Virus record (IMG/VR): IMGVR_UViG_3300031224_000002
Source of the DNA: a virus
DNA length: 36,337 nucleotides
Direction: 5' to 3' (one strand)
Each line of letters opens with the position of its first letter. The first letter of the stretch is position 1. Made by a program: the position numbers and the translations under genes. Under the pieces are notes generated by a model. It worked only from the letters and a program-made list of their open reading frames with translations, searched no databases and was not told the DNA's origin. Shown one piece after another: positions 13,458 to 32,528 of this stretch.

Positions 13458-13495
13458 TGTATCCACAAGTTGGATACAGAATGCGGGTTTGTCAA
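13458..13495 (-). promoter_or_regulatory. TTGACA plus TGTATCCA-N5-TGGATACA inverted repeat
   Basis: Minus-sense sequence: TTGACAaacccgcattcTGTATCCAacttgTGGATACAaATG. The 8-bp arms are perfect (plus strand 13458-13465 and 13471-13478). Confidence 0.5.
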
Positions 13496-18169: not shown

Positions 18170-18228
18170 AGTTTTGTTGATTTTGATTTGCGTATAAAAA
18201 TACGACTAGGCGCTAAACCCAAGATCGT

Positions 18229-18468
18229 CTATGGTGAAAAAGATTCCTTGCCAGCCCCCCTCGCCCTCGCCAGCCCCCCCCCTCGCCAGCCCCCCCTCGC
18301 CAGCCCCCCCCTCGCCAGAGAATCCACCGCCTCGACCATCACAGCGGTTTTGCTGATGCCGTTGGCCGTCGCCAGTCCGTCAAGTTGTTTGATTGTCTCG
18401 TGCGGTAGCCGGAGCGATATCATGCGCCGCTTCTCGGTGATTCGTTTCTGTGATGCTTTTGTTTCCAT
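18229..18468 (-). CDS. Ribbon-helix-helix (CopG/Arc-like) DNA-binding protein with a repeat-encoded tail
   Basis: Taken from the ATG at 18468: METKASQKRITEKRRMISLRLPHETIKQLDGLATANGISKTAVMVEAVDSL, which reads as strand, helix, helix. This is followed by LARGGLARGGWRGGGLARARGAG encoded by the G-tract array. The track start at 18555 is a TTG that spans the operators. Confidence 0.7.
   Translation of the reverse strand: METKASQKRITEKRRMISLRLPHETIKQLDGLATANGISKTAVMVEAVDSLARGGLARGGWRGGGLARARGAGKESFSP
18251..18318 (-). repeat. Tandem CTGGCGA-Gn array (G8, G7, G9, G3, G6 on the minus strand)
   Basis: Counted on the plus strand: ccag-C6-tcgccc-tcgccag-C9-tcgccag-C7-tcgccag-C8-tcgccag. The unit lengths are 16, 14 and 15 nt. 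Confidence 0.95.
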
Positions 18469-18476
18469 GTCGTTGA

Positions 18477-18544
18477 TCAATACGTTGAGTGTGAGATTGT
18501 CAATACTCTGTATTAATACGTTGAGCGTTGAGTCAATACGTTGA
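18477..18544 (-). promoter_or_regulatory. Operator/promoter cluster of the RHH gene
   Basis: On the minus strand there are three boxes: TCAACGTATTGA (18544-18533), TCAACGTATTAA (18524-18513) and TCAACGTATTGA (18488-18477). GTATTGACA sits between them, with TTGACA at 18503-18498. The ATG at 18468 lies only about 9 nt from the last box. Confidence 0.6.
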
Positions 18545-18577
18545 CATGAGATCAAGTCTCATAAATACGTTTTTTCA

Positions 18578-18712
18578 TTTATACAGCTTCAAAAAATGAT
18601 CTATACACCCTCTACATCTATTATATTTATACAGCTTATACATCTTCCTATAGATAAGAGACTTATAGAACTACTAAAAAGGAAGCTGTATAAGCTGTAT
18701 AGTTGTAGAGGG
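18578..18712. other. AT-rich iteron/inverted-repeat region (replication origin candidate)
   Basis: The 10-mer TATACAGCTT occurs at 18580-18589 and 18628-18637, and inverted as AAGCTGTATA at 18683-18692 and 18692-18701. A 20-bp inverted repeat (18629-18648 and 18681-18700, 1 mismatch, 32-nt spacer) is flanked by CCCTCTACA (18608-18616) and TGTAGAGGG (18704-18712). Confidence 0.45.
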
Positions 18713-18735: not shown

Positions 18736-20847
18736 CTAAATAAATTCGACCAGATTGCCTACTTTTCGCTCGAATTTGTGATAGTTCCAACCGCTCGTTT
18801 GCCCCTTCGATTTGCCCCACAATTTGCCAGAGTAGCGATCAAGCACCTTCTCCCGTTCAGCGACCGACCCGGTGATTCGATCAAGATTGTTGCGAGCTAA
18901 TGCGCTGTGCGACTTCGCGCCGTCGTCCAATTCGCCGAGAATGTAGTCAATGATCGCCGTGTCCTCAATACGTTGAGCAGCTTCCAATGCCTCGATTTCT
19001 TCGCGTTCAGCAGTCTCGGCGTCAATACGCTTTACCGATTGAAAACGTCGATGCCAGCTCTTTTTCTCGCTCGCATCATATTGAAAGACCGCCTTCATCG
19101 CGTTCGGCCCTCGCAGCTTCGTATTTTCAAAAGCGATTTTGCGGTCGCCAGACTCGCCAGTGATCTCGACTGCTCGCTCGATAGTATAGGCGCAGTCGAA
19201 GTCGCTTTGGAAGTCGCCGACGCCCTCAGCGATAGATTTGCCGTCTGCTGATTTGTTTTTGTTAGTATGAGCGAGCGCAATCAAGGTGCCGCCAGCCTGA
19301 GTGAAGGTGCGCACCATGATGTTAAAGATTCGCGCATCATTCTTATCCATCGTGCTTACAAATTTCTTTAACGTGTCGAGTATGATGACCATCTTGCCGC
19401 AGGCGTCGGCTTTGATCGCCGCCTTTATGATTTTCGAGAGATCGTTCGAGTCGAATCCGTTCTGGTTCGGAATGAGCGTCGTAATGCCCTCGCCGCGTAG
19501 AATCTCCATTTTTTCGATGCCGCCATTAAACGAGTCATCGGCGTTAATGTAGTAGATGCGCAGGTGCTTTGTTTTCGCGCGGTCGCGCTTCGAGAGCAGC
19601 CAGAGCGTGAGCAGAGTTTTTCCCGTGTTCGGCCCGGCGTTCAGTATCGTGCAATCTCCGATCATCGCGATTTCGGGCAGTATGAATACGGCGTCCTGCG
19701 CTCGCCGCTTCATCGCGTTGATATTTGCGTCAGTCGAGGCAGCGAGCTTGTCGAGCGCGTTGAGAAAGTCGTCGTCTGGCGCGTCCGCGATCTCAGCAAT
19801 CGACGCCTTGGCGTCCTGAATCTCGTCGTCAATTGCTTGCCATGAGTTTGCTTCTTTCTCGATCTCGCGCTTGACGAGCGCCTCAATCGAGCGAGCCACT
19901 TCTGGCGAGACGTCTTGCACGCTCGACTCGCCGAAGCCGTCCTCAGCGAGTCTCGTAGCAGCAAGCGCGTAATCGCCGCTATGATAGAGCGTCGCAAACA
20001 GTGCAAACGGGTTGTATGACTTATTCGCTTCGAGTGGCGCGGCCGACGATGACCAACACCAAAACTGCTTGTCTGCCGTGACGCCGAGCGTGCCACTGAC
20101 GCCCGATTCTTTGCCCGGTCGTGTCCAGTGCGAGCCGTTGCGAGTCGTCCAGCCCGCAGAGCGTAGCATCTCAGCCGGATCGGTCTTCACGTTGAAGTCA
20201 TCGCCCGGCGTCAAGCCCTCGTTGGCAGTCGTTGAAGACTTCGGCGACCAGAACGGCAGCGCAGACGGCGCTTCTTTGGTGACTGTCGCAATCGTCGCAG
20301 ACTTCGGATTGTAGTGCGCTTCAGTGTCGTGTGACAAAAAGCACAAGCGCGAGACATCCGAGCAAGCGGCATCAGTCTTAAGACCGAGGTGCGCGAAGTA
20401 ATCGCGCACTGTTGAGAACGCCGCTTTGTGCGTCGCTGCGCAAGTTGCGTCGATCTTGACGCCGATTTTAAGCCCGCCCGACGGCGAGACGAATAAGAAG
20501 TGCGTGTGTTTGTCTGCTCGTAGAATCTCGACAATCTGCGTGAGTTGGCAACTGTTCTCAAACTGCGGATTGTCTTCGAGGTCGAGATCAGCGACCAAGA
20601 TGCCGCTATGCTCGACAAGCGCCGACGCTGATCGCTTTGAGAATACGCCAGACGCCGTGACAGCGGGCAGGCGAGCTTTCAATTCGCTTCGAGTGTCTTT
20701 GTCTGGCGCAGCACGTATCGCGTCGCATTCGTCTTTCAGGCGGTCGCTTTTGATATATTCGATAAGCAATCGAGCGTCGAAATCGCTTGTCGGCGTCGTG
20801 TCTTTGACTGTTTTGAATGTGGAGAATTTTTTCATAGTTTCTTGCAT
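18736..20847 (-). CDS. DNA primase/helicase-like replication protein
   Basis: A 703-aa ORF. The N-terminal region (..ILVADLDLED..THFLFVSPSGGLKIGVKI..) resembles VirE/BT4734-type primase-like N-domains. The C-terminal P-loop ATPase has Walker A GPNTGKT and Walker B MVIILDT. Confidence 0.65.
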   Translation of the reverse strand: MQETMKKFSTFKTVKDTTPTSDFDARLLIEYIKSDRLKDECDAIRAAPDKDTRSELKARLPAVTASGVFSKRSASALVEHSGILVADLDLEDNPQFENSCQLTQIVEILRADKHTHFLFVSPSGGLKIGVKIDATCAATHKAAFSTVRDYFAHLGLKTDAACSDVSRLCFLSHDTEAHYNPKSATIATVTKEAPSALPFWSPKSSTTANEGLTPGDDFNVKTDPAEMLRSAGWTTRNGSHWTRPGKESGVSGTLGVTADKQFWCWSSSAAPLEANKSYNPFALFATLYHSGDYALAATRLAEDGFGESSVQDVSPEVARSIEALVKREIEKEANSWQAIDDEIQDAKASIAEIADAPDDDFLNALDKLAASTDANINAMKRRAQDAVFILPEIAMIGDCTILNAGPNTGKTLLTLWLLSKRDRAKTKHLRIYYINADDSFNGGIEKMEILRGEGITTLIPNQNGFDSNDLSKIIKAAIKADACGKMVIILDTLKKFVSTMDKNDARIFNIMVRTFTQAGGTLIALAHTNKNKSADGKSIAEGVGDFQSDFDCAYTIERAVEITGESGDRKIAFENTKLRGPNAMKAVFQYDASEKKSWHRRFQSVKRIDAETAEREEIEALEAAQRIEDTAIIDYILGELDDGAKSHSALARNNLDRITGSVAEREKVLDRYSGKLWGKSKGQTSGWNYHKFERKVGNLVEFI

Positions 20848-27322: not shown

Positions 27323-27356
27323 AAAGTAGCGCACCGAATACCCTTGTCAATACGTT
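27323..27356 (-). promoter_or_regulatory. Promoter-like site A (AACGTATTGACAAGGG-N12-TACTTT)
   Basis: On the minus strand, TTGACA is at 27350-27345, followed by a 16-nt spacer and TACTTT at 27328-27323. The 16-mer AACGTATTGACAAGGG is identical to site B. Confidence 0.55.
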
Positions 27357-32278: not shown

Positions 32279-32294
32279 CCCTTGTCAATACGTT
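32279..32294 (-). promoter_or_regulatory. Site B: AACGTATTGACAAGGG
   Basis: An exact 16-mer match to site A (27341-27356). I found no convincing -10 hexamer at 16-18 nt. Confidence 0.45.
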
Positions 32295-32311: not shown

Positions 32312-32485
32312 TTATTTTTTTCGACGCAATCTGCCGACTGAATCGCGCTCGAATCGCTGTGGATACGCGATGCGCTCAAGCTCGTTGAGACCGCGCTGAA
32401 CTTCCTCGCGAAAAATCGGAACTCTCGACTCCGCTGCGTTATACAATGCCCGAAGGCTTTTCGTTTGTCGTGTTGTCAGTTGCAT
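32312..32485 (-). CDS. Hypothetical basic protein (57 aa from the ATG at 32485)
   Basis: The track start at 32509 is a GTG only 9 nt from the TTGACA of site C. The first ATG gives MQLTTRQTKSLRALYNAAE... Confidence 0.5.
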   Translation of the reverse strand: MQLTTRQTKSLRALYNAAESRVPIFREEVQRGLNELERIAYPQRFERDSVGRLRRKK

Positions 32486-32512: not shown

Positions 32513-32528
32513 CGCTTGTCAATACGCT
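32513..32528 (-). promoter_or_regulatory. Site C: AGCGTATTGACAAGCG
   Basis: It matches 14 of the 16 positions in sites A and B. It lies in the gap between the last late gene (stop at 32532) and the first early ORF. Confidence 0.45.

Follow-up and report, generated by a model that had tools for sequence, protein, structure and literature searches.

Promoter-operator region of a CopG/Arc-type RHH gene in a family of uncultured phages: a candidate palindromic operator, lineage-specific boxes and a possibly leaderless transcript

In phage lambda, the mRNA of the repressor cI transcribed from PRM is leaderless, and this promoter is flanked by operator sites. Among small RHH regulators, the operators of Arc (TAGA) and CopG (TGCA) consist of inverted 4-bp boxes 5 bp apart, and one dimer is bound to each half (PMC2724298). 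The CopG/Pcr operator of plasmid pMV158 is a 13-bp symmetric element with two 4-bp inverted boxes separated by 5 bp, and the longer contacted region covers the promoter; the Arc/immI operator of phage P22 serves two divergent promoters (PMC2724298). Furthermore, the sigma-A promoters of Flavobacterium have a -33 TTG and a -7 element that reads TAnnTTTG or TAnnTTGY at -12..-5, of which a one-base-shorter variant exists, and 5.5% of the Flavobacterium mRNAs are leaderless (PMC9723704).

We analysed the DNA around an RHH gene in an IMG/VR virus record that is complete, has direct terminal repeats and measures 36,337 bp; it is called the window below. The window derives from salt-lake metagenomes, whose listed sequencing runs were all of DNA and none of RNA, and its likeness to isolated phages was limited to a short stretch, to Verrucomicrobia phage P8625. 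All of its genes lie on the minus strand, in the order of two DNA methylases, a 703-aa primase-helicase (20847-18736), a 180-nt origin-like region with inverted and direct repeats, the RHH gene (18468-18229), a ParB-N protein, a TET-associated-type glycosyltransferase and the large terminase. The RHH gene has replication genes on one side and packaging and structural genes on the other. No sign of lysogeny genes was found in the phage. The coordinates of the features are collected in Table 1.

Table 1 Features of the RHH control region and of related sites in the window, and conservation of the RHH promoter among nine lineages. Positions with a minus sign are numbered from the RHH ATG.
Feature	Position	Strand	Remarks
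Box 0, weak copy AAAACGTATTTA	18562..18573	-	9/12 match; sequence reading, repeat family D1
Palindrome ATGAGA-N5-TCTCAT, perfect	18546..18562	.	holds 13-bp GAGA-N5-TCTC at 18560-18548; -93 from ATG
Promoter-like site TTGACA-N15-TAAATA	18541..18567	+	spacer is the palindrome; points into origin-like region
Box 1, TCAACGTATTGA	18533..18544	-	sequence reading, motif search, repeat family
Half-box TCAACG	18526..18531	-	sequence reading
Box 2, TCAACGTATTAA	18513..18524	-	3' end is part of TTAATACAG, common to promoter at 32522
GTATTGACA, family-wide -35/-33 promoter element	18498..18506	-	hexamer 18503-18498; exactly 29 nt before ATG
Box 3, TCAACGTATTGA	18477..18488	-	fills -20..-9, where relatives carry proximal palindrome and -10 box
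Palindrome TTGATCAA	18480-18473		
Half-box TCAACG	18476-18471	-	sequence reading
9-mer ATCAACGAC (half-box and AC)	18469..18477	-	also at -10 position of promoter at 32288
RHH gene, 79 aa	18229..18468	-	core is first 55 aa (18468-18304)
Fourth exact box	18965..18976	-	within primase gene, codes AQRIE
Early promoter P2	27341..27356	-	box core fused to -35 (AACGTATTGACAAGGG), TACTTT 16 nt later
Promoter-like site P1	32279..32294	-	16-mer of P2, AACGTATTGACAAGGG; CAACGA where relatives have -10 box
Mean pairwise identity 0.89	-38..-32		nine lineages; GTATTGA
Mean pairwise identity 0.48	-12..-6		nine lineages; CAAnTTG
Mean pairwise identity 0.49	-5..-1		nine lineages
Mean pairwise identity about 0.3	-100 to -13		nine lineages; other stretches sampled

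The RHH identity of the protein, which had been proposed in a reading of the sequence only, was borne out. The family profile matched CopG (1b01) over the strand and both helices with E = 5e-4, and Pfam RHH_1 was found in 8 of 10 family members (best 7.6e-5); the window protein alone scored 19-20 bits, just below the cut-off of 20.5 bits. The AF2 monomer model (pLDDT 80.8) showed an extended segment and, after it, two helices (23-36 and 40-52). Every top Foldseek match of this model was an RHH protein, including Arc (1par) and CopG, on which it superposed with an rmsd of 1.0 Å and a TM of 0.85. Judged from the predicted fold, the protein is a CopG/Arc-type RHH, although identity amounts to about 22% with CopG and about 24% with Arc. 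By alignment to CopG, M17, S19 and R21 would be its DNA-facing residues. When the 58-aa core was used as the query, the homologue search returned just three clusters, all of the window's lineage.

In relatives, the RHH protein stops after 55 aa, ending in ...ARGG. A G-tract repeat array at 18249-18305 extends the window protein to 79 aa; this array is strain-specific and absent from all relatives, and four other salt-lake runs have contigs that skip it (55 nt). A comparison with a sister lineage showed no change in the beta strand, in the N-terminal arm or in the second helix, and about 20 changes in 50 nt of the first helix (18352-18400), which look like a recombination patch or diversifying change.

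The gene resembles copG in that a small RHH protein of similar size is encoded first in its operon and adjoins replication functions. The sequence-only reading had also made it the first gene of the late block. The gene order does place it at the boundary between the replication and the late genes, and in relatives a strong intrinsic terminator stands directly after the primase, between it and the RHH promoter, so that the RHH gene needs a promoter of its own. Such terminators with a 10-bp stem follow the primase stop at 6107-6140 in L008 and at 4620-4653 in L039. The claim needs a qualifier in that, if the genome ends near 18208-18222, the RHH gene is first in the late block only after circularisation. 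The contigs of three relatives stop at the same point, about 40 nt past the RHH stop. In four other runs, the contigs break at 18219-18222 in window numbering. These contig ends fit a physical genome end (cos) shortly after the gene, at about 18208-18222 of the window; if so, RHH would be the last gene on the packaged DNA.

At 18736-18700 of the window no terminator was found after the primase, nor was one found in the sister lineage. Read-through from upstream into the RHH and late genes is therefore possible, in this lineage only. With such a transcript the repeats upstream of the gene might act in RNA as small hairpins of a 5' leader, since a short hairpin is possible in each box and in the palindrome. 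However, the box stems comprise only 4 bp, and the 18580-18455 fold was no stabler than those of shuffled sequences (z = -0.92; 34 of 200 at least as good). We consider a role in RNA highly improbable.

Next to the window, we used eight further diverged lineages with an RHH gene downstream of the primase. The nine lineages, with 62-74% primase identity, were aligned without gaps and anchored at the ATG. As a result, the TTGACA that had been pointed out earlier at its correct position was found to lie within a real promoter element, because GTATTGACA stands exactly 29 nt before the RHH ATG in all nine diverged lineages. The element recurs in intergenic DNA of the relatives, which had been found through the primase. 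About ten of these sites have TACTTTG, or a sequence close to it, 16 nt further on, and the window site at 27350 fits with TACTTT. Numbered from the ATG, the family promoter has its -35 hexamer at -35..-30 and its -10 box at -12..-7, which agrees with textbook numbering provided that +1 falls on the A of the ATG. The start codon itself appears firm: M1 is invariant in the family, two lineages have no alternative start codon upstream, and two have in-frame stops at -24.

We infer the transcription start from this promoter geometry: the RHH mRNA would begin at or within 1-2 nt of the A of the ATG, and a leaderless start across the family is rather probable. The missing Shine-Dalgarno sequence before the RHH gene is no argument for this, because a Shine-Dalgarno core of even 4 nt precedes just 9 of the 42 window genes. 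The window itself has kept the -35 element, with an identity of 0.93 to relatives, and the spacing of 29 nt, whereas -12..-6 reads TTGATCA (TTGATC at -12..-7) with an identity of 0.23 to relatives. The family -10 box is missing since box 3, with the adjoining half-box, occupies its place. No recognisable -10 box was seen in the window's RHH promoter, and a sigma-70 consensus scan called no promoter there. TATTGA (18482-18477), which ends 8 nt before the ATG and had been suggested as the -10, is present but makes a poor one: the spacer is 15 nt, the final T is missing, and the family's CAAnTTG is not matched. A leaderless or nearly leaderless transcript, as proposed earlier, is the best reading of the geometry found in nine lineages; the family -10 box is lacking in the window. 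For the window's lineage we rate a leaderless start as evenly balanced between yes and no.

As in the case of cI, a phage regulator gene would be read from an mRNA that begins at the A of the AUG, with the start here placed by geometry only, and putative operator sites stand on both sides of its promoter. Unlike lambda, the regulator is an RHH protein rather than an HTH repressor, and the host appears to be poor in Shine-Dalgarno sequences anyway. The family promoters resemble those of Bacteroidota sigma-A in TTG at -35..-33, in TAnTTTG or CAAnTTG with the G at -6, and in the scarcity of Shine-Dalgarno sequences; they differ in that the full TTGACA is kept in many phage promoters and that the RHH-type box begins with C, not T. 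By this analogy the host would be Bacteroidota-like.

Other genes of the phage showed a similar arrangement. TTGACA-N17-CAAGTTG at 32522 and TTGACA-N17-CAACTTG at 13495 are followed by an ATG 8-10 nt after the -10 hexamer. In the former (32528-32312, minus strand), TTAATACAGCGTATTGACAA, 17 nt and CAAGTTG precede the ATG at 32485, which opens a 57-aa ORF without family match, a second candidate leaderless gene. This promoter and the RHH promoter have a common upstream module, TTAATACAG-N-GTATTGACAA, an imperfect inverted repeat. In front of late genes at 13495-13456, 7855-7819 and 2039-2001 (minus strand), TTGACA is 30-33 nt away from the ATG, and the interval holds GTATC...GATAC inverted repeats. 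Near-leaderless starts may be a frequent feature of the phage.

Directly upstream of box 1, just outside the span of 18477-18544 that had been noted earlier, we found a perfect palindrome. The 13-bp element in it reads GAGA-CTTGA-TCTC and has the layout of the Arc and CopG operators. In the 41,106 nt over the nine loci, GAGA-N5-T[CA]TC occurred in eight copies in six of the nine lineages, all of them at most 260 nt upstream of RHH starts, and none was found in the rest (about 39 kb); in the 36-kb window it occurs once. This association with RHH genes is exclusive. Four lineages (L044, L053, L067 and L070) have a copy at -24/-25 that is placed between the -35 and the -10, with its right arm extending into the -10 box, and by analogy with known repressors this is the classic place for autorepression. 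L044 has two copies, at -93 and -24. The window has the -93 copy only (-93..-79), 78 nt from the ATG as in L044; this copy stays clear of the core promoter, the -35 hexamer lying 42 bp downstream of it. The -93 palindrome is likely to be the primary RHH operator of the window, as a candidate. The three boxes, for which this role had been claimed, are not the conserved operator: what the relatives carry is GAGA-N5-TCTC.

Compared with the CopG operator, the arms are GAGA/TCTC instead of TGCA, and the element is upstream of the promoter in the window whereas that of CopG is on the -35. Moreover, it belongs to a phage rather than to a plasmid, the transcript probably has no leader, and additional 12-bp boxes are present. 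The similarity to the Arc operator extends to the sequence, TAGA-N5-TCTA being close to GAGA-N5-TCTC, and to the setting in a phage, where the window palindrome lies within the spacer of a promoter-like site on the plus strand. In this site, TTGACA is formed by the reverse of box 1 and TAAATA by the reverse of box 0. In contrast to Arc, the divergent promoter is here a sequence match only, with a 15-nt spacer owing to which the promoter scan did not call it, and no antirepressor or Mnt partner was seen. Controlled by the same repressor, the site may serve as a promoter that is directed at the origin or antisense. Among the relatives, TTGCAA-N18-TATAAT in the same orientation was seen in L008 only; a divergent promoter was not found in L039.

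Two further observations concern the surroundings of the palindrome. Four lineages that have otherwise diverged (L040, L049, L060 and L008) share an identical 17-mer, TTTGCGCATTTTTGCAA, at -75 to -87, about where other lineages carry the distal palindrome; this 17-mer is absent from the window. In addition, the centre of the origin-like inverted repeat (18655-18664), alignable between the window and the L038 lineage, reads AAGTCTCTTA. In inverted orientation, this sequence matches the RHH palindrome in its left half (GAGACTT) at 9/10 positions, which may be an extra half-site or chance.

Boxes 1 to 3 are located where the sequence-only reading had placed them; its list had omitted box 0, the TCAACG half-boxes, the copy in the primase gene, two further core sites and the palindrome at 18562-18546. 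The box motif is not a product of chance. The 12-mer gave 10 matches with at most two mismatches against 2.6 ± 1.6 in shuffles, none of 100 shuffles reaching 10, and the 8-mer AACGTATT of the box core occurred nine times against 0.8 expected. Exact copies in the window amounted to four 12-mers and five 10-mer cores, all on the coding strand. The 10-nt core, AACGTATTGA, was also observed at the intergenic promoter-like sites 27356-27347 and 32294-32285. Each box is a 12-bp element with the arms TCAA/TTGA 4 bp apart, which is not the layout of the Arc and CopG operators. Boxes 2 and 3 have a common 17-nt unit (88%), and box 3 and the half-box together fill -20..-4 of the RHH promoter.

The three boxes are confined to the window's lineage and missing from the others, and they stand where relatives carry unrelated sequence and the proximal palindrome. 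A scan of IMG/VR for tandem box cores gave at least 119 matches, which we roughly estimate to be the chance level for 18 specified bases; an RHH gene was nearby only in the window's own lineage, and the other multi-copy matches were coding repeats. Against the sister lineage, the control region (18466-18579, 114 nt) showed zero substitutions and the flanks differed by 3-6%, the origin-like region (156 nt) having nine substitutions and one indel and the 3' end of the primase (310 nt) about ten substitutions. About 4.6 substitutions would be expected in the 114 nt by our estimate, and this is effectively one comparison. For covariation of the boxes, close relatives are too alike and distant relatives have no boxes. 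The boxes appear to be a lineage-specific overlay in place of the proximal operator and the -10 box.

It might be supposed that the three TCAACGTATTGA boxes, together with GTATTGA within the -35, are themselves the RHH operators, that TATTGA is the -10 which RHH blocks when bound to box 3, and that the palindrome is secondary. Each box is indeed pseudo-palindromic (TCAA-N4-TTGA), which is common in RHH subsites; their tandem array is non-random, and box 3 covers -20..-9. The sister lineage is identical both in the boxes and in the beta strand and N-terminal arm of its RHH protein, and lineages without the proximal GAGA palindrome carry TTGA-N(1-4)-TCAA palindromes at -12 to -21. However, all other lineages lack the boxes and GAGA-N5-TCTC is shared, the arms are 4 bp apart instead of the 5 bp of the Arc and CopG operators, and TATTGA has no final T and is 15 nt from the -35. 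L053, whose RHH has the same predicted DNA-facing residues (M, S and R), has only the palindrome and no boxes; this, and the unlikeness of the boxes to the conserved palindrome, mean that homology does not imply binding of RHH to the boxes. An unrelated phage, L019, with the same RHH beta strand also has no such boxes in a contig that is 21% complete; in these 10 kb the palindrome was not found either, and the gene lies inside an operon, so that this case is uninformative. We regard it as rather unlikely that the boxes are the RHH operators in this sense. RHH nevertheless appears as the leading candidate for a protein that binds them. Such binding is putative, as is the role of the region as main switch of the phage that had been proposed earlier.

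Several other binders or readers of the boxes were considered and set aside. A 55-aa HTH protein (15606-15439) is less likely, with a palindrome of its own, ATGTGG-N7-CCACAT, at 15859-15841. In the ParB-like protein only the ParB N-terminal domain and no HTH was detected. An ECF-type promoter (AAC ... CGT) did not fit in its spacings. As for a phage RNA polymerase, no such gene was found, the 788-aa ORF being without family match.

The occurrence of the core at P1 and P2 may point to control beyond the RHH gene. At P1 (the promoter at 32288), CAACGA stands against TAGTTT or TACTTT in the orthologues, and the 9-mer ATCAACGAC is common to the RHH promoter. GTATTGACA is preceded by T in 14 promoters of relatives and by C in three of the four window promoters, as in the boxes. 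This suggests that some factor may read ACGTATTGA at several promoters. The leader after P1 (32294-32205, minus strand; CGCCAACCA...) is conserved in relatives and is followed by a GC-rich hairpin and a T run before the Cas4-like nuclease gene; it could be a small RNA or an attenuator.

The same similarity could mean that the boxes have no dedicated binder and are duplicated pieces of a promoter module, AACGTATTGA being its upstream part as in the -35 region of P1 and P2, which would act, if at all, as decoys or as weak sites for RNA polymerase. At 27350 and 32288, the promoters have a -35 region identical to the core, box 1 reads TTGACT, the 88% match of the 17-nt unit of boxes 2 and 3 suggests a recent duplication, and a box can be read as TCAAC, the 5' half of the family -10, joined to GTATTGA. 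On the other hand, every box lacks a -10 partner at a usable distance, the region has no SNP relative to the sister lineage, and the change from T to C before GTATTGACA is explained more easily by a factor that reads ACGTATTGA. Duplication without a binder seems quite unlikely to us.

The boxes could also be architectural or replication sites, at which a host IHF-like protein or the phage primase-helicase as an initiator might organise the origin-like region or a genome end in replication. Copies lie on both sides of the origin-like inverted repeats (18976-18965 and 18573-18477), and the contigs of three relatives that end about 40 nt past the RHH stop agree with a genome end nearby. Four exact or near-exact boxes fit TCAANNNNTTR, the G-to-A change of box 2 keeping the purine. 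We take this to be the IHF core consensus, and WATCAANNNNTTR, with an A/T-rich flank, to be the fuller one; its preceding WA is not kept in the boxes, which have TG, GC and AC. However, the central CGTA is invariant in every copy although IHF does not require it, the origin-like region has its own, different repeats, and the core is also on early promoters far from the origin. The host, moreover, looks Bacteroidota-like from the few Shine-Dalgarno sequences and the -7-type boxes, and to our knowledge an IHF of the E. coli type is not expected in Bacteroidota. An architectural role is, in our view, very unlikely.

Taken together, these findings suggest that 18573-18469 is the promoter-operator region of a CopG/Arc-type RHH gene that follows the replication genes and the origin-like region. 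With GTATTGACA as the -35/-33 element, its mRNA would be leaderless. The RHH protein would most likely repress its own promoter as a dimer of dimers, with the 13-bp GAGA-N5-TCTC as the target, which in relatives lies between the -35 and the -10 and overlaps the -10 box. In the window just the distal copy would have been kept; the TCAACGTATTGA boxes would have replaced the proximal operator and the -10 box, and they flank the surviving palindrome. They would probably be extra operator sites for a phage regulator, RHH being the first candidate, and the box core at two early promoters would link the control of these to that of the RHH promoter. This model as a whole, comprising the leaderless promoter, the palindromic operator, the autorepression and the boxes as an overlay, has in our judgement an even chance of being correct.

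A more far-reaching version can be formulated, in which the boxes are a recent second type of operator that copies the promoter module ACGTATTGA, so that one 55-aa RHH protein shuts off two early promoters as well as its own leaderless promoter, and the palindrome within the divergent promoter couples the early-to-late switch to origin activation. We offer this as a speculation that is probably incorrect by a wide measure. The sequence-only reading was correct in its general lines. The switch described here is of an ordinary kind with some unusual local detail, and no new principle is involved.

For this family of uncultured phages from salt lakes and the sea, the analysis provides a testable regulatory map with a promoter consensus, a palindromic operator and a probable leaderless regulator. 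It also points to operator turnover on a fixed promoter scaffold, where the -35 element and its spacing to the ATG are kept and the sequence between them is replaced lineage by lineage. The family would thereby constitute a natural series for the co-evolution of RHH specificity and operators, and the leaderless geometry in a phage poor in Shine-Dalgarno sequences bears on how translation may start in such hosts.
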